Assembly (NCBI GenBank): GCA_020632555.1
Contig: JACKFI010000001.1
Span: 133,152 to 197,151, forward strand
From: Candidatus Omnitrophota bacterium
Lineage (GTDB): Bacteria > Omnitrophota > Gorgyraeia > Zapsychrales > JANLHA01
DNA: 64,000 nucleotides
Direction of reading: 5' to 3'
This document shows positions 2,291 through 56,927 of this stretch, piece after piece. The translations under genes were made by a program, and so were the position numbers. A model generated the notes under the pieces. The model was not told where the DNA came from, did not search any database, and saw only the letters and a program-made list of their open reading frames with translations. Position 1 is the first letter of the stretch. Each line of letters starts with the position of its first letter.

Positions 2291-2297
2291 GGCCCCC

Positions 2298-5621: not shown

Positions 5622-5658
5622 ACCGTCCTCTGAATGTTAACCGGAAAGTTTCATCAAA

Positions 5659-25556: not shown

Positions 25557-26690
25557 TTAAGTGTCCTTCAATGCGTAACTTGTGCTGCGCCCACCCGCGG
25601 TTTCTTTTACTAAAATACCCTTTTCAACAAGATCGAGAATATCGCGCAACGCCGTGTCCTGTGAACACTGGGTGATCTTCGCCCATTTAGAAGAAGTGAG
25701 CTTGCCTTCAAAACCATCAAACAACTTATTGATGATCATCTTCTGCCTCTCGTTAAGGGATTGGGCAGGATGAGATTCCCAAAAACGCGCTTTCTTAAAT
25801 ACACCCGACAAAGTATTTTCAGTTGCATCCAACGCCCGACCCAAACAGCTCAGGAACCACACAAGCCATGGCGTAATATCAATGCCGTCTTTTGTGGCAC
25901 GGTTACTTTTCTGTGTTTTTTCAAGAATATCATAATAGGCATTCCGTTCCTGCCGGATCTGATTCGACATGCTGTAAAAACGCTCCCGGCTGCCGTCGGC
26001 ACGTGCCAGTTGCATATCGGCAATAGCCCGGGCAATTCTTCCGTTACCATCATCAAAAGGATGAAGTGTCACAAACCACAAATGCCCAATACCAGCTTTG
26101 AGCACAGGATCTAAATCCTTTGTGAGCGAAATCGAAGTGTTAAACCATTTCAGAAATTCCTTCATTTCACTTTTAAGACGGTTGGCCTGCGGTGCTTTAT
26201 AATGAACCTTCTCCCGGCCGATAGGACCAGACACAACTCTCATGGGACCATGCTTATCGTCGCGCCAATCAGCCACTGTAATTTTATGCATTCCGCTTCT
26301 ACCGGTTGGGAATAAACTGGCATGCCAGCCAAACATTCGATCCTGCGTAAGGGGCTTGTCAAATTTCTGTGTGGCATCGAGCATCATTTCCACCACTCCA
26401 TCCACATGACGATCAGAAGGCACAAGTCCACCGATGTCCATGCCCAGCCTGCGTGCAATGGATGACCGCACTTTGGCAGGGTCAAGAATCTCACCTTCAA
26501 TTTCACTACTTTTTAAAACATCAAGGGTGAGAGTCTGCAGGATTGCCTCGGAACGCAAAGAAAAACCCAATGCTTCCATTCTTCCAATCAGTCGCCCTTG
26601 GCGATTGCGGACAGTCCCCAAGATAGACGCGACCTTTTCGTGATCCCATGTCAATTTAGGCCAAATGGTTAATTCATGAATGTATTTCAT
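25557..26690 (-). CDS. Fic family protein (AMPylase-type toxin, class with N-terminal inhibitory motif)
   Basis: 377 aa; Fic motif HPFDDGNGRIARA; N-terminal S-x-x-x-E-G (SSEIEG) inhibitory-helix motif; C-terminal winged-helix-like region. Confidence 0.85.
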   Translation of the reverse strand: MKYIHELTIWPKLTWDHEKVASILGTVRNRQGRLIGRMEALGFSLRSEAILQTLTLDVLKSSEIEGEILDPAKVRSSIARRLGMDIGGLVPSDRHVDGVVEMMLDATQKFDKPLTQDRMFGWHASLFPTGRSGMHKITVADWRDDKHGPMRVVSGPIGREKVHYKAPQANRLKSEMKEFLKWFNTSISLTKDLDPVLKAGIGHLWFVTLHPFDDGNGRIARAIADMQLARADGSRERFYSMSNQIRQERNAYYDILEKTQKSNRATKDGIDITPWLVWFLSCLGRALDATENTLSGVFKKARFWESHPAQSLNERQKMIINKLFDGFEGKLTSSKWAKITQCSQDTALRDILDLVEKGILVKETAGGRSTSYALKDT

Positions 26691-26889
26691 GGCAAATTCC
26701 TGCGGTGAATAGTCTCATTATTCTACGCATACTATGCGGAGAATATACCATGTTTTCTCCGCATACACAAGAGAGATTTAAATCTATATTGCTCCCTACT
26801 AAAAGAAAGCGTCATTGGATATAACGGCTATGTCCAATCATATCCAATTATTGAATCTTTCCATGAGATTTGAAACGATGTGCCGGATT

Positions 26890-26909
26890 CCTGCCTACCG
26901 GCAGGCAGG
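26890..26909. repeat. Near-palindrome CCTGCCTACCGGCAGGCAGG (copy 1)
   Basis: 7-bp arms CCTGCCT/AGGCAGG around ACCGGC; embedded in a degenerate copy of the TGTGCC motif (gaTGTGCCggattcCTGCC...ggTGTGCCaa). Second copy at 38564-38583. Confidence 0.6.
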
Positions 26910-26918
26910 TGTGCCAAG

Positions 26919-27866
26919 TTATAATCGATCTGAATATTGTGAGATTGTACTTAAAATTTCATCAAACGATATTTGCCCCTGATAATACAATGTTGCAGTT
27001 TTTAGGCACTCCTTCTTAAATTGATCTCTTATCTTCGTATCTTTCAGCAAAAAAGCCTCCTGCTTTGCAATAGGAAACTTTTGATCTGCGACGGGAAATC
27101 TCTTCTTCTTATGCTCGTTGTATTCTGAAGTCCCGATAAACTTCTGAACCGTATCGTTTTGCAAAAGGCAAGCAACATCGTAATAATGCCGGATAAAATT
27201 AGCAGGCATCTTTCCGGACTCTTGCAGTTTCCGAAACTTTGTTGCGATTGTTTGCAATTTCTCAACAAACGTATAACCCAGATGATAGCACAAAACACCA
27301 CCAGCTCTATTATCCTTAACCTTGAGTCCATTCTGCAATGCAAAATCAAGCGCCCAAGAGCTAATATCCATCGGGCTGTTGGGCGTCACCTCATCAAACC
27401 CAACTTCGAGCAATACACCCTCTTTTATGCCGCCGGCAACAGAGAAAGCACTTTTGTAAAAAAGCCGTATTCCACCGCTAAAGAATTTTTCATTATCAAA
27501 TTCCGTGTCACGAATAATTCTTTGTATCCCATCAATATTAATTTTCTTCGCCAACCAGTCATAGTATTTCTTACGGCTTGCACAATGATCTGGTTTTATA
27601 TGGTTTGGACCTGTCTTGACTTCCATGCCGGCAGGCGGTTCGATACGAATATCAATGTCCTCAGAAAATCGATGAATAATGCCATACCCTTTTGAGAGCG
27701 ACGTACCTCCTTTGAGCTCGAAGGTAAATCCCCCTTGTTGCAAACCATATAAAACATGCATGATCCAATAATCTTTTTCAACCAGACTACGCTCTATCTT
27801 TTTTTCATGCTCTACAGCTCGCAAGAGTTCTTTAAATTCAGCGTGGTTATGTAAATAATCAGACAT
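26919..27866 (-). CDS. AbiEii/DUF1814 nucleotidyltransferase toxin (type IV TA)
   Basis: 315 aa; start of family alignment (MHVLYGLQQGGFTFELKGGTSLSKGYGIIHRFSEDIDIRI); 8-bp overlap with the upstream AbiEi gene. Confidence 0.8.
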   Translation of the reverse strand: MSDYLHNHAEFKELLRAVEHEKKIERSLVEKDYWIMHVLYGLQQGGFTFELKGGTSLSKGYGIIHRFSEDIDIRIEPPAGMEVKTGPNHIKPDHCASRKKYYDWLAKKINIDGIQRIIRDTEFDNEKFFSGGIRLFYKSAFSVAGGIKEGVLLEVGFDEVTPNSPMDISSWALDFALQNGLKVKDNRAGGVLCYHLGYTFVEKLQTIATKFRKLQESGKMPANFIRHYYDVACLLQNDTVQKFIGTSEYNEHKKKRFPVADQKFPIAKQEAFLLKDTKIRDQFKKECLKTATLYYQGQISFDEILSTISQYSDRL

Positions 27867-28452
27867 GTGCTAAGTTTCCCTCTAACATCCATTGATTAAA
27901 TAAAGTTTTTGTTCTTTCTCCTGCATAAACATTGACCGCGCGCTTCATCTGAGATTCTGGTTCTTTCAGCACTTTTTCCTTAACACTTCGCAAAACACTT
28001 TCCCGATCTTCCGCTAACTCATTTAAATTGTTCAGTAAATCAACCAGTAGAAATTCTTCGGACAATTCTCTGGGGAATTTATGCTTTAATCGAAAATCAA
28101 ACTCCTTTCCACCAAGAACGAATTGACCATGCCGTTTATGATTATAAACAAAGCGCGTATTGTACAACTGCGTAGTTCCCACTCCTAAAGAATTGTAAAG
28201 GTTAGGCGAGGTTAAAAGAAAATCATCGCTTTTTAAGAAGGCCCGTACCAATTTTTCGTCTTCCGGTGGCACAGAGCCAAACGAGGCTTTTGCAGGATAA
28301 TAGTACAATCCCTGTGACATTTTTTGCAAGGTCCCCTCATCAACCAGTTGCTTTAAATGCCGATCAACCGCGGTTGACCATTGCTCCAGATCAACCCTGC
28401 GATAAACCTGTCCCGGTTTTAAATGCCTTTTAAGTTCGCTAAGCGCGTCCAC
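27859..28452 (-). CDS. AbiEi-like antitoxin/transcriptional regulator
   Basis: 197 aa; AbiEi_4-like N-terminus (LKPGQVYRRVDLEQWSTAVDRHLKQLVDEGTLQKMSQGLYYYP); position and overlap with AbiEii. Confidence 0.7.
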   Translation of the reverse strand: MDALSELKRHLKPGQVYRRVDLEQWSTAVDRHLKQLVDEGTLQKMSQGLYYYPAKASFGSVPPEDEKLVRAFLKSDDFLLTSPNLYNSLGVGTTQLYNTRFVYNHKRHGQFVLGGKEFDFRLKHKFPRELSEEFLLVDLLNNLNELAEDRESVLRSVKEKVLKEPESQMKRAVNVYAGERTKTLFNQWMLEGNLAHV

Positions 28453-42720: not shown

Positions 42721-43693
42721 CTTTCTTTTTCTTTGTTTGCTCAGCGGACTCATTTGCACGCCTTTGGCTTGTGCACCCCAAAACGTACCCCAAAAAGTTT
42801 CACTGACCTCTGCGCAGGAAAAATTTCTTAAACTCTGCCATGAAGAGCTCAAGTACGAGGTCTCCGTGTTTCCCAAGGGCAAAACGCTGTGGGTTTATGT
42901 TCCGCTGTCTGATAATATCAGCATTCTCAAAGCGGCACCCAAAAACCAAACACCGCCGGCGGATACCATAGAAAGCTGGTCCATCAATTTTCTAAAAAGC
43001 ACGTTTGAAAACAAAACATTTGTGATCAGCTATGACATTACGCCGACTAAGAAATATGATCAACCCCTAACATATAAAAATAGCTATTCCGATGAATATT
43101 CGAAGAAACAAAGAGAAGTCTTAACCGCTTTGACGCGCGCGTATTTTGATGTCGGGCAAAAGAACATCGACAGTTCTTTGACCGTTGGCAATCAAGCCGA
43201 TACGACCAGCGATAAACCCCTAGTCAAAAACATTGCCGAGGGCATTTTGCCGCCAGAGAAAGAAGCCGCGCCTCCCGAATTCTTTGTCACAATCTTTGCC
43301 GACATCAAAAACGGGGTCGCGGTAAAAACCACCAACTATTTTGAAGATATGCGCATGGCTCTCTCAAACCCGCCGGCTATTTCTAACGACGAATATGCCA
43401 AACGTTTTGTTTATGAAATATTGGGAGATGAGAAGATGATTGGCAATACAACCGGTACCAATCTAGAAATGAATGAAATCATTTTGAGCGATTTTTTGGC
43501 CAAACAAATCGAAACCCGCATCAAATACCAGTTCACGCAAAGTAATTTTCCTCCCACGGGACAAGTGCTAGATGAGATTTGGACTATCGTCGGAGAAACC
43601 TGCCGTTTGTATCAATTCAAGGATTTCGAGAAAATCAAACTCATTGACCTGCAGACTCAAAAAGAATCAACTTTCGATAAAAGCCAACTTTAG
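42710..43693 (+). CDS. Secreted hypothetical protein
   Basis: Signal peptide MKYNFLFLCLLSGLICTPLACA; the track ORF starts earlier (42647) but the ATG at 42710 fits a signal peptide and avoids overlap with the upstream gene. Confidence 0.4.
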   Translation: MKYNFLFLCLLSGLICTPLACAPQNVPQKVSLTSAQEKFLKLCHEELKYEVSVFPKGKTLWVYVPLSDNISILKAAPKNQTPPADTIESWSINFLKSTFENKTFVISYDITPTKKYDQPLTYKNSYSDEYSKKQREVLTALTRAYFDVGQKNIDSSLTVGNQADTTSDKPLVKNIAEGILPPEKEAAPPEFFVTIFADIKNGVAVKTTNYFEDMRMALSNPPAISNDEYAKRFVYEILGDEKMIGNTTGTNLEMNEIILSDFLAKQIETRIKYQFTQSNFPPTGQVLDEIWTIVGETCRLYQFKDFEKIKLIDLQTQKESTFDKSQL

Positions 43694-44535
43694 AACTCCA
43701 CGCCCACTTTCATGCCGACGATAATTGAAGTATTCTCGAATTCTTGCTGTGATTTAGCCGCTTGCACGCCGGTGTGGAAAACGGGCTTCACCTCCGAGCT
43801 GTCGATGCTCCAATAATCCACGTAAGGCTCAAAAATATAATTTTTGTCACTCATTTCTTTACGAATTTGGATAGAAATTTTAAAACCATACCCGGAATCT
43901 TGGTCATTATCAACATCACCAAATAAAGGGTCCAAATCACTCAAATAGGTCGTTTGTTTGCCAGACCAAAAGAAATCATATTCTGCCTTGACTCCAGCCG
44001 ACCAACCTTTGGCTAATGGGGTATTGGTTTCAAAACCCAACGGCGTGTACAAATATTCAGAAACTCGTCGATATCCCGCATTAACTTTTTGCAATTGATC
44101 TTTCAAATAACGATAACCAATCCCGGCAAATGGCGTGATCGTCGTGTCTGAAAATATCGAAAAATCATAGCCAGCCAAACCGCGAAATTCACTGATAAAG
44201 TTTTTAACATCCTGAATCTCATAATAACGATCATCATAAAGATAACCGTTAAAATCAACTCTGCCGAAGATAATGCGGCCATCAACTTTGAGCATAACCT
44301 TGGAAAATTGTTCCACCCACGATTCTCCCCGATACGTGTACGAACCCGACAAACCATACAAAAATCCATTTTCTTCCATAGCTGTTTCTTTAAAATCGTA
44401 ATAGCCCGCCTCGGGACTTAAAGTGATGGTATGTGTTTTAGGTTCCAAAGCGTCGACCGCACCAGGAGCCAAAGCACAAACTAAAAATAATACAACAATC
44501 AATATCGCAAACCTTGGCATAATCAACCTCCTCAA
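43690..44535 (-). CDS. Outer-membrane beta-barrel protein
   Basis: 281 aa; signal peptide; amphipathic strands; C-terminal ...VGVEF. Confidence 0.4.
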   Translation of the reverse strand: MRRLIMPRFAILIVVLFLVCALAPGAVDALEPKTHTITLSPEAGYYDFKETAMEENGFLYGLSGSYTYRGESWVEQFSKVMLKVDGRIIFGRVDFNGYLYDDRYYEIQDVKNFISEFRGLAGYDFSIFSDTTITPFAGIGYRYLKDQLQKVNAGYRRVSEYLYTPLGFETNTPLAKGWSAGVKAEYDFFWSGKQTTYLSDLDPLFGDVDNDQDSGYGFKISIQIRKEMSDKNYIFEPYVDYWSIDSSEVKPVFHTGVQAAKSQQEFENTSIIVGMKVGVEF

Positions 44536-44568
44536 AAATTAAAATAAAACATACGTTGCCGTCCCATT

Positions 44569-44982
44569 TTATTGCCTGGGCAGAACAAAAAGCGGTAAAG
44601 ACGCACAATTGATTCCGTCAACGGCCAAATCAATAGAATACTCGCCGATCCTTTCAACTTTTAATCCATGAATATTAAGAATCAAATTGGCTGAACCTGT
44701 CCGTTGTTGATCAGGAAAATTCACATGAATCACTCCTGTTGTAGACGGAATAATGTGCTTGCCGTCGATATCCACAAAATTGACCGTAATGCGATGCTCT
44801 CCGCGCTCCTGATTATTAAATCGAATGCGCAAAACAACCGCGCATTGAGGATGAACTCCAGGAACTTGCTTAATCCACAACGTGTCAAACGCGCCTAAAA
44901 TATTTAATTTGCCGGTATCATTGGTCGCGGCATCACAAAGAGAAAACACTTCAATATTCATAAGCCCAAACCCTTTCTTCAA
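44569..44982 (-). CDS. Hypothetical protein
   Basis: 137 aa ORF; no motif. Confidence 0.3.
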   Translation of the reverse strand: MKKGFGLMNIEVFSLCDAATNDTGKLNILGAFDTLWIKQVPGVHPQCAVVLRIRFNNQERGEHRITVNFVDIDGKHIIPSTTGVIHVNFPDQQRTGSANLILNIHGLKVERIGEYSIDLAVDGINCASLPLFVLPRQ

Positions 44983-45974: not shown

Positions 45975-47996
45975 TTAAGGACGATGTTGAAGTTTTTTCT
46001 CGAGGGTTTGCAATTGCAGTTCAATTTTTTCAAAGGTCTGATCTTGTAAGCGCATTTGATTGTTCTGCTCTTTGAGCGCGCCGGTTAGAACCGCGGTAAT
46101 GCCCATCGGATCAACACTTCTGCGACCTTCTTCAGCGACGAACTCCGGAACATCTTCGGCAATAAACCCGACGTGATGTTCCTCATGATTGACTTTATAA
46201 TTATAAGTCACAGGCTGCAATTCTTTGACCACTTCTAAAGCTTGGCGGGTATCTAATGGATAGATATGCTCTTTATACTCGCGGCTGGATAAAGTCATCC
46301 ACGTTCCAACATCGTCCAAATGCGCATTATTACCAAAATGCAAAGGGTAGGCCGGATCAGGTCGTCCAACACCAATTCGACCATTATTTTTAACCATAAA
46401 AATATCTCCAGCGGTTGCGGAGTTCTGTGAAGTCACAGCAAAAAAATCGTCCCCATTATTAATTTTTATATCTAAAATCGCACTGGGCGCAGTGTTACGA
46501 ATACCGAATTTGGGATTATTGGTACTGGGCGCAATAATAAACGCATCCGAGGCTGAAATCGAAACAGCTGATATGGAATACCCCCACACAAAAGATCGAT
46601 TTGCGCTATTAATCAAATTCATATAACGTCCTCCTGCCCATGAATAATCGCCCAAAACCGTATTATTTCGACCATTGCTAATGACTGAATAATTTCCTGA
46701 AACATCATTATTCACACCACCAACAACTATTGAAGAACGTCCAGCCCTATTATTAGCCCCTCCCCAAATAACCGCATAATCCCCAGATGTCACATTTCCT
46801 GTTCCACCCATAATCGCCGACCAAGAGCCATTAACTGTATTGCTCCTGCCTCCATCAATCACTGAATACAAACCATTCGCGGTATTGGTCAATCCTCCCG
46901 CAATAAATGAATAACTCGCCAACGCATTATTTGATTGCCCCCCGCCGACCACAGCATAAGGACCAGCTGAATTTTGACAACCGCCACTGACCACAGAATA
47001 AATACCGGGATCGTGATGCAATGTGCCGCCGGAAATAGTAAAATAATCGGCCGCAACAGTTTTGGTCGGATCCGTTAAACAATTTGGAAAAACCCATTGC
47101 GCATTATTACTACTGCCGCCGGTGATCGTCGCACCGACTCCTGCCGCAACATTACAAGAACCACTAAAAACAACATTATAATCATTTCGTGTTTGGCTTG
47201 ATTCTCCACCGACAACAGAAGCTCTCCCCTGCACATCACTTCGCTCACCCCAATTGACAGCATACTGACTGAAAACATCTGTTTTTAAACCGCCCAAATT
47301 AGCTGAATAATCTCCGGAAGCTTTTGAATACCGTCCAAATGCAACTGCAGCTAACCCACTGGCCTTAATATTGTCTTTACCTAAAGCAATTGAATAATCG
47401 CCAATATTGCCATCATTCCAAGCATCGGAAAAATCTTCTTCCCCCCAAAAATGCGTTAAATGTCCAACACGAAAAGCCGCTTTACGAGGATACCAAATCA
47501 TTTGCACCGCCCCTTCAAAACTAGACTCAGCAATAGCAGGCAAGTCAGGCAAAAGTTGGCCACTGCCCAATTGCCCCATCGCTAAAATACCGCCATCATT
47601 TTCTAAAGTCAGCTTGAATTCCGGAACAGTCGTGCCAATACCCACAAAAATATTGGGATTGGTGACTATCGCAGTTGGAAAAACATCATTGCCCGACTGG
47701 GTCCAAGAGCTTTCCAACAATGTCCATTGTCCATTTCCACTGCCATCATCAAAACAATAATGCAATTGATCTGTCCCCTGCTTAACAGACAATGTCCCAA
47801 GCGCACAAGGGGTGGATAATACTTGCGGCAATAAAGTCACTCGATCATAAGCGCCTTGCGGTGCCGGATAATATGTCGTTAATGTAAGACTCTCAGCCAA
47901 CGCAGACAAAGAACTCAATACAATCAAAGCGACGCTGATCGCCCCAATTTGAATTGAGCGTAAAAAACCATCGTCTCTGTGCTGAGCCTTTTGCAT
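45975..47996 (-). CDS. Secreted fibre protein with C-terminal peptidase S74 intramolecular-chaperone domain (paralog 1)
   Basis: 673 aa; signal peptide; conserved N-terminal YYPAPQGAY...RVTLLP block; Gly/Asn/Ser-rich ~14-aa periodic middle; C-terminal SSREYKEHI...HVGFIAEDVPE auto-processing chaperone signature; terminal coiled coil. Confidence 0.7.
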   Translation of the reverse strand: MQKAQHRDDGFLRSIQIGAISVALIVLSSLSALAESLTLTTYYPAPQGAYDRVTLLPQVLSTPCALGTLSVKQGTDQLHYCFDDGSGNGQWTLLESSWTQSGNDVFPTAIVTNPNIFVGIGTTVPEFKLTLENDGGILAMGQLGSGQLLPDLPAIAESSFEGAVQMIWYPRKAAFRVGHLTHFWGEEDFSDAWNDGNIGDYSIALGKDNIKASGLAAVAFGRYSKASGDYSANLGGLKTDVFSQYAVNWGERSDVQGRASVVGGESSQTRNDYNVVFSGSCNVAAGVGATITGGSSNNAQWVFPNCLTDPTKTVAADYFTISGGTLHHDPGIYSVVSGGCQNSAGPYAVVGGGQSNNALASYSFIAGGLTNTANGLYSVIDGGRSNTVNGSWSAIMGGTGNVTSGDYAVIWGGANNRAGRSSIVVGGVNNDVSGNYSVISNGRNNTVLGDYSWAGGRYMNLINSANRSFVWGYSISAVSISASDAFIIAPSTNNPKFGIRNTAPSAILDIKINNGDDFFAVTSQNSATAGDIFMVKNNGRIGVGRPDPAYPLHFGNNAHLDDVGTWMTLSSREYKEHIYPLDTRQALEVVKELQPVTYNYKVNHEEHHVGFIAEDVPEFVAEEGRRSVDPMGITAVLTGALKEQNNQMRLQDQTFEKIELQLQTLEKKLQHRP

Positions 47997-48011
47997 ATTT
48001 TTATCCCTGTC

Positions 48012-50006
48012 TTATTTCTCTAACCTTGTCCGCAATACTTTAATTCTTTCTTCAATCAGCTGAATCTTGTGTTCCCGTTGTTCAATTTCAGATTGTTGAT
48101 TTTGAACAACCTTGGTTAAAACGGCAACAATATCCATTGTGCTCAAAGTTTTGCGGTCTTTAACCGCAACTAAACTCGGAACATCTTCGGCAATAAATCC
48201 AATATTCGTATGATCAGGATCATTTTTATATTCAAATGTAACCGGATTTAATTGCTCAAAAGCTTGCTGGGCATCTGCTCCTGTCAGCGGAATAATATTT
48301 TCTTTAAGCTTGCGGCTAGATCCATTTTCCCAGGATCCTCCAGAACTCACATAAGCCCCATTGCCAAACTCCATTGCATAAGTAGGATTTGTTGGCATTA
48401 TTTTTTGGCTGCCAATATAACCATTTCTTTTCACAATAAAAACATCCCCAGAAGTTATTTTTCCCAAAGCCAAGAAATTATCAGCAGTTCCGTTGGCATT
48501 AACTTCTAAAACACCAACCGGATTAGTATCCCTGATCCCAACTCTGGGATTCCAAACAACTCCGCCAATCGTTCCCGGCGCAATAATAAATGCATCCGGC
48601 ACAACAATAGAAACCGCTGTATCAGAATATCCCCACGCAAAAGTTCGCTGCGCGGTACTTGTCAAATTCATAAAACGTCCCCCAGCCCAAGAATAATCGC
48701 CATCTACTATATTGTCCGTCCCACCCATGATCGTAGAATACCCGCCGTAAGCTCTGTTTCGCTCACCCCCCGCGATCACAGAATAATTATAGCTAGCATC
48801 ATTTTGCCACCCACCACCTATAATCTGGCCGAAACCTCCGCGAATCACATTCGTGCGTCCACTAGAAATAAACGAATACCTATTACCAGTTAAAATGGAA
48901 TTGCTGTCCCCACCGGAAATTCGCACATATTCACCAGCTGGACTAAACACAGAAACGTATTCACCGGTTTTATTCGCCAAGCCACCGCCAATGCTTGAAT
49001 AAGGTCCCTCAACAATATTGCCCTCACCCCCCAAAACAATAGAATAATCAGATCTGACTTTATTGTCCTTACCCCCACCAATCAGCGAATACCCCGTCGG
49101 AACACCAAAATCAGTAAAATCAATTAAATTATTAAAACCACCATTGATGTTTGAATATGGAATTGTGACACGATTTTGTGCCCCGCCGGCAACAACACTA
49201 TAAATCGCAGTGGCCTGATTATCTAAACCCCCAAGAATCGCAGAAAAATCTCCGGAAACCACATTGTTTTCTCCACCCCAAAGTGCCGCATATCGACCAC
49301 TGGCCATATTGTCCTTGCCACCGCCAACCGCTGAAAAATCCGCACTGGCCGTGTTCCTAAATCCACTGCCAACCACAGAATATAATGCACTGGCAATATT
49401 TCCATCGCCGCCGCCGATAGCTGAATAATGTCCACTGGCCCTTGTATTCTTTCCAAAAGCCGTGGAATAATTGCCGATATTCCCATTGTCCCATTGAGCC
49501 CCATCAACATAACCGGCGCGAATCGCGGCTTTACGCGGATACCAAATAAACCGGCTGCCCGCTCCTAAATTCGGCAAGGTCGCGCCACTGCCAAATGTCC
49601 CCTTAGCCATAATCCCGCCATCTTTTATTAAAGTCAGTTTTGAATCCGGCGTGTTGGTCCCAATCCCAACACGCAATAAAGGATTGCTCAAAGTATCTTT
49701 CAAATAAATATCATCATTCGTTTGCATCCAAACATCACTAAGCGCTTCCCACGCACCATTACCGCTGCCATCATTGTGACAATACTGAAGACTCCCCAAA
49801 GAATTCACATACAAAGATCCAATCGGACAAGCCGCAGTCAAGTCTGCGCGTGGCAGTAAACGAAAAGTGTCATATTCCCCTACCAATGAAGGATAATAAA
49901 TATCCATTTTCATTTCTGGGCTCGCCTGCGCAACGGGGACAAACACAAATCCCGTACAAATGAGGAGAAGAATTAGGAAAAGTTTTTTTGAATTATTTAT
50001 CATCAT
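48012..50006 (-). CDS. Secreted fibre protein with C-terminal peptidase S74 domain (paralog 2)
   Basis: 664 aa; same architecture (YYPSLVGEY..., SSRKLKENI...NIGFIAEDVPS). Confidence 0.7.
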   Translation of the reverse strand: MMINNSKKLFLILLLICTGFVFVPVAQASPEMKMDIYYPSLVGEYDTFRLLPRADLTAACPIGSLYVNSLGSLQYCHNDGSGNGAWEALSDVWMQTNDDIYLKDTLSNPLLRVGIGTNTPDSKLTLIKDGGIMAKGTFGSGATLPNLGAGSRFIWYPRKAAIRAGYVDGAQWDNGNIGNYSTAFGKNTRASGHYSAIGGGDGNIASALYSVVGSGFRNTASADFSAVGGGKDNMASGRYAALWGGENNVVSGDFSAILGGLDNQATAIYSVVAGGAQNRVTIPYSNINGGFNNLIDFTDFGVPTGYSLIGGGKDNKVRSDYSIVLGGEGNIVEGPYSSIGGGLANKTGEYVSVFSPAGEYVRISGGDSNSILTGNRYSFISSGRTNVIRGGFGQIIGGGWQNDASYNYSVIAGGERNRAYGGYSTIMGGTDNIVDGDYSWAGGRFMNLTSTAQRTFAWGYSDTAVSIVVPDAFIIAPGTIGGVVWNPRVGIRDTNPVGVLEVNANGTADNFLALGKITSGDVFIVKRNGYIGSQKIMPTNPTYAMEFGNGAYVSSGGSWENGSSRKLKENIIPLTGADAQQAFEQLNPVTFEYKNDPDHTNIGFIAEDVPSLVAVKDRKTLSTMDIVAVLTKVVQNQQSEIEQREHKIQLIEERIKVLRTRLEK

Positions 50007-50008
50007 AT

Positions 50009-51943
50009 TTACTCAAAGTGCCTGTTTAATTGCTCTAGCTCATTTAATAAATCTTCACTTTTTTGCTTCTGTTGCTCAATTTTCTCTTGTTGATAAGCAA
50101 CAACCTTGGTTAAAACCGCAGCAATATCCATTGGGGCTAATCCTTGGCGTTGTTTTTGAACAACCAAAGCAGGAACATCTTCGGCAATAAAACCAACATA
50201 TTCTTCATCTTTTTGTAATTTATAATTAAACCGTACCGGATTTAAACCACGCAATGTTTCTAAAGCTTGATCCAGGTCCAAAGCCGTAATATTTTCTTTA
50301 TATTCACGACTTGATGAAGGCATGAATTTACCACTGGCATCAACATAGGCACCGTTACCAAAATCCATAATGTATTGCGGATTACTCTTATTAACCCCAA
50401 TGCAACCATTGCAACTGCCGCCTTTCTTGATGGTAAAAATATCACCCACAACAGAACTAGAGTTGCTGGTAAAGTTTAAATAATCATCCGCAGAATTATT
50501 GCCATTAATTTCCAACCCAGCGGCAGGAGTTATATCGCGAATACCCATTCTGCCAGAATAAATGATAAAAGCATTGGCTGTCGAAATATCTGCAGGCGCT
50601 GCAGAATATCCCCACAAAAAAGTATTATTAGCCCCAGTGGTCAATCTCATATTTCGACCAGCAACAAATGAATATGGGCCAACAATAGAATTATCAGCCC
50701 CACCGGCAATCATCGAACAATCAGAAGCCGCCTCAACCCTATTGAGCTTACCCCCCATAACCGTTGCATAAGGACTCAAAACGCCATTGTCTTCTCCTGC
50801 GCCAATCACAGAATAATCCTGACTCACAGTATTTCTATGCCCACCACCGACGACCGAATAAAGACCCTGAACAAGATTATCACTGCCGCCGGCAATAACC
50901 GAATACTGTCCAGAAATAACATTTGACTTCCCACCGGAATTAACAGAATATGAAGCGCTGGACGAATTTAAATGCCCCCCCGCAATAACAGTCCGATCCG
51001 TTACATTGACAAAGGTGTTGGCCCGACCGCCGCTAATGACCCCATAACTGCTAACCTGACTTGGCGAAAAAGAATTATCCCCACCACCTGAAATTATTTG
51101 ATAATCATAATAAGTCTTATTATTGTTCCCACCCGCAATAATTCTAAAACGAGAATAATTATCCGACCCGCGCGGGTGAGAATTATCTCTCCCTCCGCCG
51201 ATATCAGACCACACGTCCCCCGCACTATTATTAAAACCGGCTAGTCCTCCCTCCCAACAATCATCACGGCAAACATTGTTTTCTCCACCAAGAATAATTC
51301 CGCCCTTAGCTGCATTCGATTTACCTCCTAAAATCATTCCCCATCTGGCATCGTTATTCTCGCCACCTAAAACAAACATCCCTCTGCTGCCATATCCCAT
51401 AACTACACTGCCTGGATCAATATTCCCAACATCCCATTCATTCCCGGCAGCATACCCGGAACGAAAAGCTTTTTTCGATGGAATCCACATCAAGCGCGTA
51501 CCGGCTCCCGCAGTAACTAAGGCTGTCCCACTGGCCCAACTGGGCGTAAACCATCGCGATAAAATTCCACCATCACCGGCGAGCGTTAACTTAAACTGCG
51601 GCATCATTGTTCCAATCCCAACTTTTTTAGCTGCTGGATTCGTCGTATCGGCAAGATGGAGATTGTCTCCTGTCAATACCCACGTACCAGAGACAAGCAC
51701 GTATTTAGAAAACGGAGTGTCCTTAACACAATAATAAAGTCTGCCTAGGTCTGTCGCATTGGCATACAATGTACCAACAGGACAATTTGTATTTGGAGTA
51801 ATAGCTGGCTGAGGATTTAATCTGAGTTTGCTGTAATTTCCCGTTGGAGCAGGATAGTAGGACGTCATTTCCAAACCGCTGCAAGCTGCACAGGCGATAA
51901 ACGCGAACGAAAAAAACAAATATGCTGAAAATATTCTTCGCAT
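50009..51943 (-). CDS. Secreted fibre protein with C-terminal peptidase S74 domain (paralog 3)
   Basis: 644 aa; same architecture (YYPAPTGNY..., SSREYKENI...YVGFIAEDVPA). Confidence 0.7.
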   Translation of the reverse strand: MRRIFSAYLFFSFAFIACAACSGLEMTSYYPAPTGNYSKLRLNPQPAITPNTNCPVGTLYANATDLGRLYYCVKDTPFSKYVLVSGTWVLTGDNLHLADTTNPAAKKVGIGTMMPQFKLTLAGDGGILSRWFTPSWASGTALVTAGAGTRLMWIPSKKAFRSGYAAGNEWDVGNIDPGSVVMGYGSRGMFVLGGENNDARWGMILGGKSNAAKGGIILGGENNVCRDDCWEGGLAGFNNSAGDVWSDIGGGRDNSHPRGSDNYSRFRIIAGGNNNKTYYDYQIISGGGDNSFSPSQVSSYGVISGGRANTFVNVTDRTVIAGGHLNSSSASYSVNSGGKSNVISGQYSVIAGGSDNLVQGLYSVVGGGHRNTVSQDYSVIGAGEDNGVLSPYATVMGGKLNRVEAASDCSMIAGGADNSIVGPYSFVAGRNMRLTTGANNTFLWGYSAAPADISTANAFIIYSGRMGIRDITPAAGLEINGNNSADDYLNFTSNSSSVVGDIFTIKKGGSCNGCIGVNKSNPQYIMDFGNGAYVDASGKFMPSSSREYKENITALDLDQALETLRGLNPVRFNYKLQKDEEYVGFIAEDVPALVVQKQRQGLAPMDIAAVLTKVVAYQQEKIEQQKQKSEDLLNELEQLNRHFE

Positions 51944-52033
51944 AAGCGGTTTTGAAAAAGACCAACTGATATAAAAAAAACACTTTTTTATACTATAGGA
52001 GAAGTATACCTGAAAAAATGACTAGTCACAATG

Positions 52034-53317
52034 TCAAGAATGCATCTTTTCAGTCAAAAAGGCAAGATCGCCGCCGTGGCGATAACGAATCATACCGGCA
52101 ATGCCTACAATGGTAAAAATCGCGCCCACCGAAACCAAAATCCAAAACGCGTCAATACGTTCAGCTAGCCATGAACTGATCAACATGGAGGTCAAAAACG
52201 CAAAATGAATAACGATTTCCAACGCGCTAAAAACTTTTCCTCGCATCGCCTCATCACTGGCCACATGAACAATCGTATTAGACGCGATAAAAATCGGACC
52301 AATCACAATACCCAATAAAAACGCCAGAATCCCAGCCAAAAAAACACTTGGGTATTGCTGGACGGTCGTCGCGAAAACAATAACCATCGCTCCGCCAGCC
52401 ATCAAGCTCAAAAAAATCGTACGCGACCACAAAACTTTTTTGCCCCAACGCCCATAAAGCAAAGCGCCAATAAAGAGCCCCACACCTAAGCAAACAGCCA
52501 AAACACCCAAGTCCCGCGTGACCGTGTTAAAAGCTTTTTGAATAAAAACGATAATGACTACATAAATAGCACCAGCTGCGGACAAAAGAATAAAAAACAT
52601 ATTCATCACGAAACGAATCTGACGCTGGCTAAACAAATACTGCAAGCCTTCTTTGATTTCTGAAAAAAAAGATTTCTCAATCGCAAGAAATTCCTTGCCC
52701 TTATCAATGATTTGTTTTTTACTCAATTCGACATGAAACTTAGCACCCATTGATCCAATTAATAACGCTGAAAAAAAGTATGTTGCTCCATCACCAAAAA
52801 AACCTGCTTTCACGCCAACTTTATCAACCAAAAAACCACCTAATGCACAACCCAAGACAAAAGCCAACATACCTGTGGTCGTCAAAAGCGAATTGGCCAT
52901 CAAAATATTTTCGGCGGGAACAAGTTCAGGAACAATAGACATTTTAGCGGGCACATAAAAACGGCTAAAACAAAAAATCAGAAAAACAATAATATAAATT
53001 TCGATCATGGATTGTTTATACAAAAAGAAAAAAGGAATGATCAAAACCAGAAGTCCACGAACCAAATCACATACAAATAATGTCTTGCGTTTGTCCCAAC
53101 GATCCACATAAACGCCGGCAATAGGCCCGACGATAAAAACGGGAATAATCGTAAACGACAACAGTTTGGCCAAGCTGTAAGCTGAACCAGGTTCACGCTG
53201 GGCAATCAAACCAATCAAGGCCATTTGATTTAAGCGATCTCCAAACTGCGAAATCAGCTGTGCCCACCACAGACGCATAAACTGCTTATTTTTTTTATCA
53301 AAAATAAAACGCAACAT
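52034..53317 (-). CDS. MFS transporter
   Basis: 427 aa; 12 TM; MFS N-terminal signature (AQLISQFGDRLNQMAL...VDRWDKRK). Confidence 0.75.
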   Translation of the reverse strand: MLRFIFDKKNKQFMRLWWAQLISQFGDRLNQMALIGLIAQREPGSAYSLAKLLSFTIIPVFIVGPIAGVYVDRWDKRKTLFVCDLVRGLLVLIIPFFFLYKQSMIEIYIIVFLIFCFSRFYVPAKMSIVPELVPAENILMANSLLTTTGMLAFVLGCALGGFLVDKVGVKAGFFGDGATYFFSALLIGSMGAKFHVELSKKQIIDKGKEFLAIEKSFFSEIKEGLQYLFSQRQIRFVMNMFFILLSAAGAIYVVIIVFIQKAFNTVTRDLGVLAVCLGVGLFIGALLYGRWGKKVLWSRTIFLSLMAGGAMVIVFATTVQQYPSVFLAGILAFLLGIVIGPIFIASNTIVHVASDEAMRGKVFSALEIVIHFAFLTSMLISSWLAERIDAFWILVSVGAIFTIVGIAGMIRYRHGGDLAFLTEKMHS

Positions 53318-53320
53318 AAT

Positions 53321-55126
53321 TTAAAGCTTCTCAATACGCCGGGCCATATCGGCCAAATGCATAGTCGCCAGACGATCCAATTCATCAGGACCGGACTTGA
53401 GCAACAAAACACGCTCATAAAACGCGATCGCTTTTTCCCGTTGCCCCAGCATTTGATACGTTGAAGCGAGGTTAAATAAAGCTTCTTTCAAATTTCCATC
53501 TAATGAAATTGCTTTTTCGTAATACTCAATGGCCCGCCGGGGATCAGATAATTTCGAATACAAAATCCCCAAACTATGGTAACCGCGCGCATTATCGGGT
53601 TTTTCTCTCATCAAACGTTCATAATGTGAAACCAAAAACAATTCCGTAGACTTGATATTATCGTCAAGCAAGTTCTTCAAATCGCCCGGATCGGTAATCT
53701 TATCATATTCGCGCAAACCTTCCCAAAACTTACCTTGATCACATAAGGATTTACCCAAACCAATGCGCGCCCGGATATTAAAAGGTTCAACATCCAAAAC
53801 TTTTCGAAAATTATGTTCAGCCAGATCAAACCGATTGCGCTTAGCATAAGATAAAGCCAAAGAATTGCGAATACGCGTATTGGTCGGATTAATGGACAAA
53901 GTGCGCTCGAACATTGCGATTTCATTGCTGGAATAAATGTTGTATTGAATCGTTAAAAGAATCAAAAATAAAGAAAACCCTATCACACCAGAGCGAATCA
54001 TGAAAGGAGAAATCAATTTACGGCGCGCACAGGCTTTTTTGTAATGCTCAAAGAGCACCATGGCTAAAACAAAAATACCAATGCTGGGCACATATAAAAA
54101 ATGCTCCGCTGTTGAAATATAGCCCGGCTGGACTCCCACTGTTGTAATAATCTGAGAAACAGGTAAAAGTTCAATAAAAAACCAGCTCACACAAAAAGCT
54201 TGCAACCCTGTGATTTTCTCGCGCTTAATCCAAGCCATCGCCATTAAGGCCAAGAAAAATAGCACAGTCAGAATCACCTGAGTGTCCATGAAACTAATAA
54301 AAATCGGCTGAGAACGATCAAAATAAAGATCAACCGGAAAAATGAAAAGGCGCAAATCGATGATCACACTTTTTAAAAATGTCAAAAAACCCAAAACCAT
54401 TTCACTCGCCGATCGCCACGGAAAAGTTCTCGTAATGCCTAAAATATGGCGTATCCCCAAATAAACTCCGGCGACAGCAGCGTAAGGAACAAGGCCAACG
54501 AAAAGTTTTTTAAAATGAAAGCTTTGTTTTTCCTTAATAAAATAAGAATAACTTAAAAACACCAATGGAAGAATACCCGCGGATTCTTTGCACAGCAGCG
54601 CCAAAGCAAACGCGATCAGTGAAAAATACGAATAATATTTCCGGCGGTCGGAATAAATAAAAAAATAAAATGACGCCAGCCCATAAAAAGCGCACAAAAG
54701 AATAGAACGCCCGGGAATATTAGACACCGCCTCCCATTGAATCGGATGCAAAGCAAACAAAAATGCCGCTCCCAAGGCCATGGCTCGTCGATCTGTCAAA
54801 GCAAAAACAATCGCAAAAACCCAGAAAGCGTTGAGAATATGAATAAGAATATTGTCTACATAATACGGAACGGGATCGAGTTTAAAAAAATGGTATTCCT
54901 TCATAAAACTCAGCGTAACCAATGGCCGATAATAAGCCTCCCCACTAAAAAAAGCGCTGGTCATCACTTTGGGAATATTACGAAAACTGCGAACATCTTC
55001 ATTGCGGACAATTGAATAATCATCATCCAGCGTCTTAAAAGCGCCATTAATGCTAAACGAATAGACAAAACATGTCATAAACGCCAACAAAATCAACCCA
55101 ACAAGTGTTTTACGTTTTTCAATCAT
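53321..55126 (-). CDS. TMTC-like GT-C membrane glycosyltransferase with C-terminal TPR repeats
   Basis: 601 aa; first-loop acidic motif LDDDYSIVRNEDV; YYRPL and FALHPIQWEAV blocks as in TMTC/DUF1736 proteins; about 11 TM; C-terminal TPR repeats. Confidence 0.6.
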   Translation of the reverse strand: MIEKRKTLVGLILLAFMTCFVYSFSINGAFKTLDDDYSIVRNEDVRSFRNIPKVMTSAFFSGEAYYRPLVTLSFMKEYHFFKLDPVPYYVDNILIHILNAFWVFAIVFALTDRRAMALGAAFLFALHPIQWEAVSNIPGRSILLCAFYGLASFYFFIYSDRRKYYSYFSLIAFALALLCKESAGILPLVFLSYSYFIKEKQSFHFKKLFVGLVPYAAVAGVYLGIRHILGITRTFPWRSASEMVLGFLTFLKSVIIDLRLFIFPVDLYFDRSQPIFISFMDTQVILTVLFFLALMAMAWIKREKITGLQAFCVSWFFIELLPVSQIITTVGVQPGYISTAEHFLYVPSIGIFVLAMVLFEHYKKACARRKLISPFMIRSGVIGFSLFLILLTIQYNIYSSNEIAMFERTLSINPTNTRIRNSLALSYAKRNRFDLAEHNFRKVLDVEPFNIRARIGLGKSLCDQGKFWEGLREYDKITDPGDLKNLLDDNIKSTELFLVSHYERLMREKPDNARGYHSLGILYSKLSDPRRAIEYYEKAISLDGNLKEALFNLASTYQMLGQREKAIAFYERVLLLKSGPDELDRLATMHLADMARRIEKL

Positions 55127-56927
55127 TTTTTTTCTCTGCCTGGTTAAGGTAATTTTCTACCGCTTTTAAATTCATATCCCCATCAAACTTTTCTTGAGCT
55201 TTTGCCAATACCGTCCGCGCTTGCGGCAAATCACCGGCCTCAATGTTAATATGTATCACAAAAACATAAGCCAGTACCGATTGAGAATCAACTGCCATGG
55301 CCTGCAAAGCACAATCTTTTGCCGACACATAATCTTTTTTAATCAAATAATTCCTCGAAAGCTCCAAATACAATCCCGAAAAACCGGGAGCCAACTCAAT
55401 GGCTTTCTTCAAATAACCAATCGCGGCGTCGGGAGTAGCAGCCGCTTTACTTAGAAGATGATAAGTCATAAATTTTTCTTTGTCACTGGAAATAAACGGA
55501 TTATTCATCGCGACTTTAAGATGTTGTGTAAGATATTTAACCGCCTGCGGCGAATGACCTGCCAAATAACTATCCAAGCCTAAAATCCAATACGGGCGAG
55601 AACTATCCGGATACCGGCGAATCATTTCGCGGCAAGCCACAAAATTATTTCTAAAGAAATCATTATTGGCAATGGTTAAAATAATCAAAAACCCTGTCCA
55701 AACTCCTGGCAATATCAATCTCATGTTCAACGTAATATGTCGTCGAGTAAACCACTGCGCAAGATGGTCTATACCAATCGCAAATAACAAAAAAAATCCA
55801 ATCGACGGCAAATACAAGAAACGAAATGCTAAAGGATTAAGCAAAGGAAAGATCCCAGAAGCCGGGAAATAATTGACAAAAAACCACACAAACCCAAAAG
55901 TAATAATTTTATCGCGTCGAAAAAAATTAACGGCTAAAATTATGGACAATAAGCTAACAACCAACGGCACCATCAATTCCCAAATCGGCATTGGAAAAAT
56001 TGGCGGGGCATACAAGGGAGGAAGAACAGAAACTTTAAACGGCAAAACCAGCGCCACGCAGTACTGTAAGAAAAGTTTAAGCATCAAGACAATTTGCGCT
56101 AAACCTTTTAAAGCATAAGGCGAAGGCTGTAAATAAAATACATTAGGAATTAAAATGAAGTACACACATAAATAAAAGATCGTGATTCCAGCCAAAACCG
56201 CGTAAAGCCCCTTCTTTTGACCAAGAATCTGTCGACCCTTTTGCGCTGAAAGAAAGAACCAGTCGACAATAAAAATAATAAATGGAAAAGTTACTGCTGT
56301 TTCTTTTGAAAACAAAGCCAAAAAATATGACACTCCGACAAGACCAAACCAGAGGCCTTTTCTTTTAGCCTCACTAAAGCGCGCATAAGCTAAAACCGCG
56401 CACAAATAAAACATCGTCATCAAAATATCCGAACGATACCCGCTGGCATTGACAACTTCCGACTGAATTGGATGGACTGCGAAAAAACTTGCCGCCCAAA
56501 AAGCTATTTTTTTATTGCCGGAAATCCGCAGGATAAAATAAAAAACCAAAATGCAGGTCAAAAAATGAAGAAATATATTACTAAAATGATGCCCCGTCGG
56601 ATTGTTCTTCCATAAAGCGTAATCTATAAAAAAGGTCGCAGCGCTAACCGGACGATAAGAAACGCACCCGGAAAAAGATTGAGTCTTTTGTGAAGCATCA
56701 TAAGTCGACGGATTCATGACCAAATCTTGTGAGAAAATCTTTGGGAAATTGGTCAGACTTTTATAAAATTCATTGCCGCTAAAAAGAGCCTTGTCGTCGC
56801 CAACAAAGTCATTTTGCAAACAATTGTGAAAAGCGGCTGCAACAAAAAGCGCTAAAAGAAAAATAATTAATCGATTGGTGAAGGGAATTTTTGTGAAGGA
56901 AAAATTTTTCAAGGCACGAAGAATCAA
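55119..56927 (-). CDS. TMTC-like GT-C membrane glycosyltransferase with C-terminal TPR repeats (paralog)
   Basis: 602 aa; FVGDDKALFSGNEF, YRPV and FAVHPIQSEVV blocks; polytopic; C-terminal TPR; 8-bp overlap with the downstream paralog. Confidence 0.6.
   Translation of the reverse strand: MILRALKNFSFTKIPFTNRLIIFLLALFVAAAFHNCLQNDFVGDDKALFSGNEFYKSLTNFPKIFSQDLVMNPSTYDASQKTQSFSGCVSYRPVSAATFFIDYALWKNNPTGHHFSNIFLHFLTCILVFYFILRISGNKKIAFWAASFFAVHPIQSEVVNASGYRSDILMTMFYLCAVLAYARFSEAKRKGLWFGLVGVSYFLALFSKETAVTFPFIIFIVDWFFLSAQKGRQILGQKKGLYAVLAGITIFYLCVYFILIPNVFYLQPSPYALKGLAQIVLMLKLFLQYCVALVLPFKVSVLPPLYAPPIFPMPIWELMVPLVVSLLSIILAVNFFRRDKIITFGFVWFFVNYFPASGIFPLLNPLAFRFLYLPSIGFFLLFAIGIDHLAQWFTRRHITLNMRLILPGVWTGFLIILTIANNDFFRNNFVACREMIRRYPDSSRPYWILGLDSYLAGHSPQAVKYLTQHLKVAMNNPFISSDKEKFMTYHLLSKAAATPDAAIGYLKKAIELAPGFSGLYLELSRNYLIKKDYVSAKDCALQAMAVDSQSVLAYVFVIHINIEAGDLPQARTVLAKAQEKFDGDMNLKAVENYLNQAEKKND

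Follow-up and report, generated by a model that had tools for sequence, protein, structure and literature searches.

We describe here three adjacent genes in a 64,000-nucleotide stretch of contig JACKFI010000001.1 from a Candidatus Omnitrophota bacterium (the whole of this stretch is referred to as the window), whose products are probably secreted trimeric fibres that carry an S74 auto-chaperone domain at the C-terminus. The genes, denoted C, B and A in the order of their transcription, lie at 50009..51943, 48012..50006 and 45975..47996 on the minus strand, as do all of the parts located below. A first-pass annotation, made from the sequence alone, had placed three adjacent open reading frames (ORFs) encoding 644-673 amino acids at this site, and this holds, with products of 644 (C), 664 (B) and 673 (A) amino acids. 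The genes are co-oriented and run head to tail, with a gap of 2 nt between C and B and of 15 nt between B and A. A sigma-70-like promoter candidate, TTGTGA-17-TATACT (52003..52031), is present in the 90-nt gap upstream of C, although it is a weak match from a consensus scan alone. The three proteins can be aligned end to end, with pairwise identities of 37-38%, and have the same order of parts: a signal peptide, an N-region with two cysteines, a beta-roll of 15-residue turns, a neck, the S74 domain and a terminal helix. An AlphaFold2 (AF2) monomer model of B, with a mean predicted local distance difference test score (pLDDT) of 76.6, was used alongside the alignments to delimit these parts.

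The signal peptides proposed at first were borne out by the sequence, by the AF2 model of B and by the cleavage sites of orthologues. Each has a basic N-terminus containing K/R, a hydrophobic core and an AxA-type site. In C the signal peptide (51878..51943, approximately residues 1-22) is placed from the sequence together with the type I sites of orthologues, which lie between ...QA and E. That of B (49926..50006, approximately residues 1-27) would be cleaved between AQA and SP and is modelled as a helix at residues 4-22, and that of A (47892..47996, approximately residues 1-35) would be cleaved between ALA and ES. In the orthologues the site between ...QA and E occurs at a constant distance ahead of the YYP motif that opens the next region. 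A lipoprotein anchor on C was considered for the sequence FIACAACSG of the window copy and rejected, as C orthologues have ordinary sites between ...QA and E and no Cys.

The N-region spans about 120-130 residues and was delimited in C at 51488..51877 (residues ~23-152), in B at 49545..49925 (residues ~28-154; from alignments, AF2 and HMMER) and in A at 47496..47891 (residues ~36-167; from alignments and the family profile). It starts with the motif YYPxPxGxY..L.P and contains two invariant cysteines, the full set of invariant residues being Y42, Y43, P44, G48, Y50, L55, P57, C64, G67, L69, Y80, C81, D84 and W98 in the numbering of A. The motif and the cysteines of the conserved block first described here therefore stand, whereas DGSGNG, which had been included in it, is found only in A and B and is replaced by DTPFSK in C. 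In B the region consists of a small two-Cys beta domain at residues ~50-102, with AF2 strands at 65-102 (pLDDT ~83), and a connector module at ~105-154; in C a YYPAPxGxY...C...C...W subdomain is likewise joined to a VGIGT..KLTL..GG connector, and residues 23-173 match positions 1-146 of the N-region profile. No significant match to the Protein Data Bank (PDB) was found for the first subdomain (B ~50-102) in a fold search with the AF2 model.

Dissection of the N-region by an exhaustive HMMER scan separated these two modules. Matches to the full profile (positions 1-145) always start at residue ~23-38, right after the signal peptide, in proteins of 400-850 amino acids. Profile positions ~78-145 (VGIGT..KLTL..GG..WYPRKAAFRAG) represent the connector, which is repeated up to 13 times in giant proteins of 1-4 thousand amino acids. 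In B the recurring unit corresponds to residues ~105-175, and 4-13 copies of it occur in metagenome proteins of 1,000-4,000 amino acids (P0138-P0141 and others). The small fibres and very long fibre proteins are therefore built in part from the same modules.

The middle of each protein is a repeat region of ~290-305 residues with the consensus GGxxNxVxGxYSxIx, giving about 17-19 turns per chain. The periodicity noted in the first-pass annotation is real and belongs to a beta-roll of the YadA/UspA1 type, although the period is 15 residues rather than ~14. The roll, referred to below as the head, lies at 50606..51487 in C (residues ~153-446, with GGxxNxVxGxYSxI turns), 48627..49544 in B (residues ~155-460) and 46578..47495 in A (residues ~168-473). 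In a search of the PDB with a family profile built from 49 sequences, profile positions 251-494 matched the head of Moraxella UspA1 (3PR7, E = 9.9e-41; 3NTN, E = 8.4e-14), of which the B head is a homologue. In the AF2 model the B head is a single-chain beta-roll whose pLDDT exceeds 90 over residues 160-250, and Foldseek matched its fold to UspA1, CbpF, AtaA and BoaA. The match to the Pfam YadA_head model is below the cutoff (15.4 vs 25 bits), and for the A head both the YadA_head and the LbR_Ice_bind matches are sub-threshold. The head is followed by a neck of ~100-115 residues, whose length is specific to each orthogroup (~99-103 in C); it lies at 50315..50605 in C (residues ~447-543) and 46290..46577 in A (residues ~474-569), both placed by alignment, and at 48321..48626 in B (residues ~461-562), and would form the distal tip of the mature fibre. 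The B neck carries a second VGIxxxxPxxxL motif at residues 489-500.

The C-terminal part had been read as an S74 signature with a final coiled coil, and comparison with the Pfam model PF13884, which has a gathering cutoff of 22 bits, upheld the S74 signature in all three proteins. The S74 domain and terminal helix together lie at 45978..46289 in A (residues 570-673; 43.2 bits, E = 5e-11), 48015..48320 in B (residues 563-664; 39.7 bits) and 50012..50314 in C (residues 544-644; 38.4 bits). In each case the alignment begins at profile position 1, on the first Ser of an SSxxxK motif within an SSxxxK...GFIAEDVP block. The putative cleavage nucleophiles are Ser570 in A (codon 46287-46289, with Lys575 at 46272-46274, in SSREYK), Ser563 in B (codon 48318-48320, with Lys568 at 48303-48305, in SSRKLK) and Ser544 in C (codon 50312-50314, with Lys549 at 50297-50299, in SSREYK, which continues as SSREYKENI). 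All 26 family members listed have the Ser-Lys motif, as does every orthologue examined, and both residues are at least 90% conserved in the 49-sequence alignment. The family profile also matches S74/intramolecular chaperone auto-processing (ICA) domains of solved structure, namely those of the phage S16 long tail fibre (6F45, E = 3.4e-8) and MyRF (7DC3, E = 2.4e-7), and Foldseek showed that 7DC3 (probability 1.0) and the K1F chaperone 3GW6 share the S74 fold with the model of B. The terminal helix is amphipathic and is predicted at residues 623-663 of B. These matches support the identification of the C-termini as genuine S74 intramolecular-chaperone domains with a Ser-Lys motif, for which self-cleavage is predicted. 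Chromosomal bacterial proteins with an S74 domain are no rarity, and more than 547 such stretches occur across many phyla among GTDB species representatives.

Sorting the ORFs of every fetched locus into types A, B and C gave the transcription order C-B-A in all ten complete triplets, from eight genomes, with one member of each type per triplet. The window, L001, L005, L012, L087 and L009 have one complete triplet each, and L002 and L086 each have two tandem ones; that of L009 is preceded by the tail end of another triplet. In neighbour-joining (NJ) trees the orthogroups A, B and C are monophyletic, with bootstrap values of 1.0, 0.93 and 0.98, respectively, and hidden Markov models (HMMs) of the N-domain specific to each orthogroup correctly reassigned 25 of 25 members when one genome at a time was left out. 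Orthologues are 40-58% identical to the window copies, compared with 33-41% between paralogues. Where the triplet has been duplicated, the event is old but all of the genes have been kept, and the duplicates have diverged to identities (C/B/A) of 66/59/62% in L002 and 51/64/45% in L086. The flanks of the cassette vary, being MFS/purN in the window and acpP-SMC...fabV in five others, with pyrBC...glmS and the dcw cluster also seen. As the flanking genes differ between genomes, the cassette is autonomous, without a conserved partner gene. Full-length relatives all come from metagenome-assembled genomes (MAGs) of Omnitrophota, some of them labelled 'Planctomycetales'; the enolase of the window shows 100% identity to the enolase of a MAG listed at NCBI as 'Candidatus Omnitrophica', and the named close relatives are all Omnitrophota. 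Outside this phylum, the sampled loci mostly contain S74-tailed ORFs singly (67) or in pairs (8).

Divergent middles between conserved ends had been taken to indicate a diversifying receptor-binding repertoire, and this claim is not supported. Identities within orthogroups compared with those between paralogues are 0.56-0.67 vs 0.35-0.49 for the N-region, 0.46-0.54 vs 0.38 for the head, 0.60-0.63 vs 0.45 for the neck (0.60 within orthogroup B), 0.59-0.63 vs 0.50 for S74 and 0.51-0.58 vs 0.30 for the terminal helix, and between paralogues the first N-subdomain has an identity of 0.35-0.37. The head is thus only mildly less conserved than the ends within orthogroups, and is not the most divergent part between paralogues. 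Together with the fixed gene order and the age of the orthogroups, these values point to three old genes under purifying selection and not to fast-evolving alternative tips.

There are also many relatives in which the S74 domain is absent. These proteins have the same signal peptide, N-region, head and neck, and are again encoded by three tandem genes in housekeeping neighbourhoods, between pyrBC and glmS in L084/L085 and beside the dcw cluster in L088. Their C-terminus of ~145 residues (P0043, residues ~570-715; L084, 8001-10148) has no Pfam, PHROG or PDB sequence match. It is modelled in P0043 as an all-beta domain (AF2 pLDDT 86-96), the best fold matches being a C-terminal fragment of phi29 gp12 (3GQH, probability 1.0, TMt 0.55) and pre-mature gp12 (3SUC). 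Phage spikes are known to use one other trimerisation auto-chaperone that is cleaved off, and this is the C-terminal domain of phi29 gp12 (PMC3357383). From the similarity in fold, we tentatively assign the C-terminus of this sister subfamily as a phi29-gp12-like auto-chaperone in the position of S74. If the assignment is correct, the same body has been kept while the C-terminus was swapped, so that the C-terminal module would serve folding and be exchangeable, the functional product being made up of the N-region, head and neck. The P0043 module opens with a conserved G-[SY]-D-L-A-E-x-F motif, and its model also resembles trimeric phage capsid-decoration proteins.

Other variants of the cassette are seen as well. 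The triplet of L048 has the same N motif and S74 with an unrelated middle, and its paralogues are only 27% identical yet have lengths of 651, 646 and 641 amino acids; L061 contains a short triplet of 429, 423 and 431 amino acids. L089 is the one exception to the rule of three, with a complete two-gene S74 cassette in which one gene has SSRTLK and the other the canonical SDERLK. This cassette (L089, 6285-11391) sits where L084 (8001-14587) holds a non-S74 triplet, at the shared site pyrR-pyrB-pyrC ... TP_methylase-glmS-rpmA-dsbA, which shows cassette replacement at a fixed chromosomal position. A one-to-one positional orthology of the distant triplets (non-S74 and L048) with C, B and A seemed plausible by eye and was rejected, as the N-domain HMMs place all of these proteins nearest to B; the NJ tree does not resolve their position.

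By homology to UspA1 and S74 proteins, and with the signal peptides and a non-phage context, a secreted trimeric fibre or adhesin at the cell surface is the best-supported reading of A, B and C, as first suggested, and a likely one. The fuller explanation towards which we lean, with modest confidence and as a whole, is that the three genes form a single operon on an Omnitrophota chromosome, that they are non-redundant paralogues of ancient origin, always passed on and duplicated together, and that their products are three trimeric surface fibres that are exported by Sec, process themselves and belong to the same type as the mosaic adhesive trimer (MAT) fibres of Bdellovibrio. Experiments have shown that MAT fibres are autoprocessed, are located at the surface and function in prey handling (PMC10769870). 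The simplest reading of the presence of three genes, which we take as the default, is that three homotrimers with distinct, fixed roles are produced together.

The life of such a fibre can be pictured in five steps. The signal peptide, which is visible in the sequence, would take the chain across the inner membrane. The S74 domain and helix would then trimerise and template folding from the C- to the N-terminus, first of the neck and then of the ~17-19-turn beta-roll, as suggested by K1F endosialidase, T5 pb1 and Bd3182. The motif predicts that the Ser-Lys dyad would then cut before Ser570 (A), Ser563 (B) or Ser544 (C), freeing ~100 residues. The mature chain of ~520-535 residues would remain as a rigid trimer, presumably with the two-Cys N-domain at the cell and the neck pointing outwards. 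Finally, the fibres may bind other cells or surfaces, as suggested by the UspA1 and MAT precedents and by the suspected lifestyle of the phylum (PMC10066038).

Some points weigh against this explanation. Neither the window nor the related loci contain a conserved neighbouring gene for crossing of, or anchoring to, the outer membrane. A search with the N-domain, by word index and with sampled names, gave no match in Bdellovibrio, the likeness of this domain to that of MAT fibres being one of position and size. Lastly, independent homotrimers do not account for the retention of precisely three genes, and their duplication solely as a set, across several divergent subfamilies.

This last point is where a different arrangement has to be considered, namely that A, B and C are the three chains of one 1:1:1 heterotrimeric fibre, brought into register by cognate S74 domains. 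We regard this as a serious but rather unlikely possibility. There is an analogy with the three tandem C1q genes, which give one heterotrimer, and the number of genes equals the three-fold symmetry of the fold. The invariable C-B-A order, the duplication of whole triplets with all six genes kept in L002 and L086, and the recurrence of triplets in divergent subfamilies (the non-S74 L084 and L088, as well as L048 and L061) all speak for such a fibre, as does the prevalence of singletons and pairs in other phyla. The type of C-terminal module is always uniform within a triplet, gene junctions are tight or overlapping, and the terminal helix is the most paralogue-specific part of the proteins. However, homotrimers that are co-expressed and have to stay unmixed would be just as likely to show such divergence of the helix, and all three terminal helices have ordinary hydrophobic heptads with no charge complementarity or asymmetry of the core. 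The chains also do not match in length: within one triplet, bodies measured between the first conserved Cys and the Ser of S74 are unequal by 15-56 residues (mean 24.5), the lengths of head and neck are specific to each orthogroup, and body lengths show no consistent covariation (C-B r = -0.7, C-A r = -0.56, B-A r = 0.82; n = 6). The complete two-gene cassette of L089, and the failure of distant triplets to map one to one onto C, B and A, are further difficulties, and in the literature searched no heterotrimeric S74 fibre was found, and no heterotrimer among the trimeric autotransporter adhesins (TAAs). If the three chains did form a heterotrimer, it would be the first heterotrimeric S74/ICA-chaperoned fibre, and would explain why the genes are kept, duplicated and module-swapped in threes.

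For the favoured surface fibres, adhesion is the expected function, and another proposal is that these secreted trimers have a non-adhesive structural role, as a coat or spacer layer on the surface, or as a beta-roll that binds ice or minerals. A published description of Omnitrophota cells calls them 'coated' (PMC10066038), and the degree to which the head is conserved within orthogroups is as compatible with a structural role as with binding. The family also resembles the ice-binding beta-roll of Lolium, both in Pfam (PF21300, 12-22 bits vs a gathering cutoff of 30) and in the PDB, where the family profile matches 3ULT with E = 2.5e-8. The Pfam matches are however below the cutoff and are explained by the generic 14-15-residue repeat that beta-rolls share, and identity as ice-binding proteins was rejected on these grounds. 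By far the strongest homologues are adhesin heads, that of UspA1 in particular, and the only characterised family of this architecture acts in cell-cell recognition (PMC10769870). A structural role is consequently a distinctly improbable one.

A further proposal is that the proteins are true tail fibres, the genes being remnants or parts of a phage, a tailocin or a contractile injection system that is otherwise encoded at another site. Relatives are named 'tail fiber domain-containing protein' by NCBI, the tail-fibre models phrog_1980 (E = 6e-12) and phrog_6921 match in PHROG, and Foldseek matched viral S74 and YadA-head proteins in BFVD. The best of these matches (A0A481YTP2, A0A481ZFW2 and others) come from metagenomic 'Marseillevirus/Pithovirus' bins and may be either viral genes or bacterial ones binned by mistake; since a YadA head with S74 occurs there too, the domain combination alone is not new. 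The similarity to phages is nevertheless essentially limited to the C-terminal part, both for the PHROG tail-fibre matches and in a tblastn search of 50,697 phage genomes, where only the last ~110-150 residues had any counterpart and the matches covered residues ~500-660, at 27-31% identity to tail-fibre or tail proteins. A, B and C, like their orthologues, have Sec signal peptides, but the particles of phages and tailocins are put together in the cytoplasm. No phage structural, lysis or integration gene was found among about 45 ORFs of the 64-kb window scanned against Pfam, and no phage gene in about 10 related loci with flanks of ±9-10 kb, so that the absence of phage genes noted for the immediate surroundings extends to the whole window and a prophage just beyond the region first examined, named then as one of the findings that would overturn the fibre reading, was rejected. 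The GC content is flat across the fibre locus and the genes are inherited vertically as orthogroups, and a phage origin is very improbable. Classical TAAs (type Vc secretion), to which the head homology with UspA1 and YadA-like heads might point, are already refuted by the missing anchor domain, as the YadA_anchor beta-barrel model of Pfam matches none of the three proteins even at E <= 1 and the C-terminus is instead S74 plus a helix.

The self-processing surface fibres proposed here would matter chiefly for the biology of their hosts. Omnitrophota are widespread, uncultured and ultra-small, and are suspected to be host-dependent or predatory (PMC10066038). Their candidate attachment machinery has so far consisted of Tad and type IV pili and of poorly understood giant ORFs (PMC10066038), and the Omnitrophota literature searched makes no mention of these fibres. 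The cassette is therefore a small set of genes, open to laboratory expression, that may serve in the recognition of hosts or surfaces, parallel to the prey-recognition fibres of Bdellovibrio. It also suggests that Sec-exported cellular fibres have recruited the trimerisation auto-chaperones of phages and, if the structural match to phi29 gp12 is true, that two unrelated classes of chaperone have been exchanged on the same body. The strict unit of three genes raises the question of homo- versus heterotrimers.

The ORFs of the window that were scanned against Pfam are housekeeping, defence or insertion sequence (IS) genes, and the window includes three tRNAs. Among the products encoded are a TetR regulator, oxidoreductases, an M48 peptidase, a lipocalin, enolase, FtsH, PurN and a HAD hydrolase. 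Directly upstream of the fibre operon, at 52034-56927 (minus strand), are genes for a major facilitator superfamily (MFS) transporter and two tandem paralogous membrane proteins of ~600 amino acids; both paralogues have C-terminal tetratricopeptide repeats (TPRs) and one has a sub-threshold PMT_2 (glycosyltransferase-39-like) match. These MFS and TPR/PMT-like genes were considered as partners in secretion, anchoring or glycosylation and were rejected; other genomes do not have them beside the cassette, and nothing supports a functional link, for instance through glycosylation of the fibres. On its other side, at 43690-44982 (minus), a 281-amino-acid protein with a signal peptide, ending ...VGMKVGVEF, is encoded beside a DUF6941 protein; it has the look of an outer-membrane beta-barrel, and gave no Pfam or PHROG match. 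Further away, a secreted protein of 1224 amino acids (59377-63051, minus) contains about 16 near-identical tandem Ala-rich helical repeats of ~50 residues (AKAAVDNYFAALMAAQNPAIAKTVMEAAMAAVLNPSDKLIVNNYYGQTAIV), with a C-terminal region of ~370 residues that has only a weak FG-GAP-like match; the protein was assigned to no family.

Several other gene groups in the window may be of separate interest. The sole mobile-element gene is an IS256/Mutator-family transposase (37347-38471, plus strand) beside a tRNA-Met (38731-38804, minus). An RtcB - SPFH/Band7 - RtcA operon on the minus strand occupies 30547-35842 together with the gene for an RtcR sigma-54 activator, which is transcribed divergently. 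A cluster of defence or toxin-antitoxin type (25557-28452) encodes a Fic/DOC protein with DUF4172 (25557-26690) and an AbiEii nucleotidyltransferase toxin (26919-27866), and a further ORF (27859-28452) lies upstream of the AbiEii gene and overlaps it. The gene for an HMG-CoA reductase (21946-23214, minus; E = 2.5e-112) hints at a mevalonate pathway, and at 314-7635 (minus) there is a GlgE-type alpha-glucan set made up of a branching-enzyme-like protein, a 1107-amino-acid alpha-amylase/TreS-like protein and GlgE.

Among described systems, the closest precedent for the fibre cassette is the Bdellovibrio MAT family, in particular its S74 subgroup, such as Bd3182 (PMC10769870). MAT fibres consist of a signal peptide, a conserved N-domain of ~130 amino acids, the fibre and S74 (PMC10769870), and the same order of parts is found here, with a beta-rich N-domain of ~120-130 residues that is alike in position and size, and an S-x-x-x-x-K dyad. 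Both are chromosomal and not phage-borne, and both are mosaic families with subfamilies that bear another C-terminus (or, in L048, another middle). A capping-loop motif of the VG..P...L type next to S74 may be a further likeness; in B similar motifs occur as VGIGTNTPDSKL (113-124) and VGIRDTNPVGVL (489-500), the form seen here, VGIGTxxPxxxL, being one residue longer than the MAT consensus V-G-[G/N]-pi-x-x-P-x-x-x-L. The hosts are in both cases small bacteria that depend, or are suspected to depend, on other cells.

There are differences, however. The present proteins come from another phylum, have ~650 rather than ~1,000 amino acids, and have a body that is almost wholly a UspA1-type beta-roll, and the cleavage motif is SSxxxK here in place of SDxxxK. 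The alternative C-terminus appears to be a second auto-chaperone, from its resemblance to the phi29 gp12 fold, and not an adhesive tip. No counterpart of the strict three-gene cassette has been described for the 21 MAT genes, and the papers citing the MAT study (PMC10769870) concern Bdellovibrio-like predators only.

With TAAs (UspA1, YadA, CbpF of Fusobacterium and AtaA of Acinetobacter) the fibres share a homologous head repeat and, presumably, a rigid trimeric adhesive stalk. They differ in that the C-terminal anchor barrel is absent and trimerisation is presumably brought about by the cleavable S74, and as the N-terminus is presumably the end nearest the cell, the polarity of the head would be opposite. 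The S74/ICA domains of phages (K1F endosialidase, T5 pb1, S16 gp37) and of eukaryotic MyRF belong to the same domain family, with the Ser-Lys motif and a following helix. Here, in contrast to phages, the domain is on a Sec-exported cellular protein, so that folding would occur outside the cytoplasm, and the rest of the protein has no phage counterpart. The likeness to phi29 gp12 (3GQH, 3SUC) is structural only and concerns the sister subfamily (P0043), the domain being absent from the window. What is new in relation to these systems is an Omnitrophota counterpart of MAT-like fibres in the form of a conserved three-gene cassette, with an apparent swap of chaperones.

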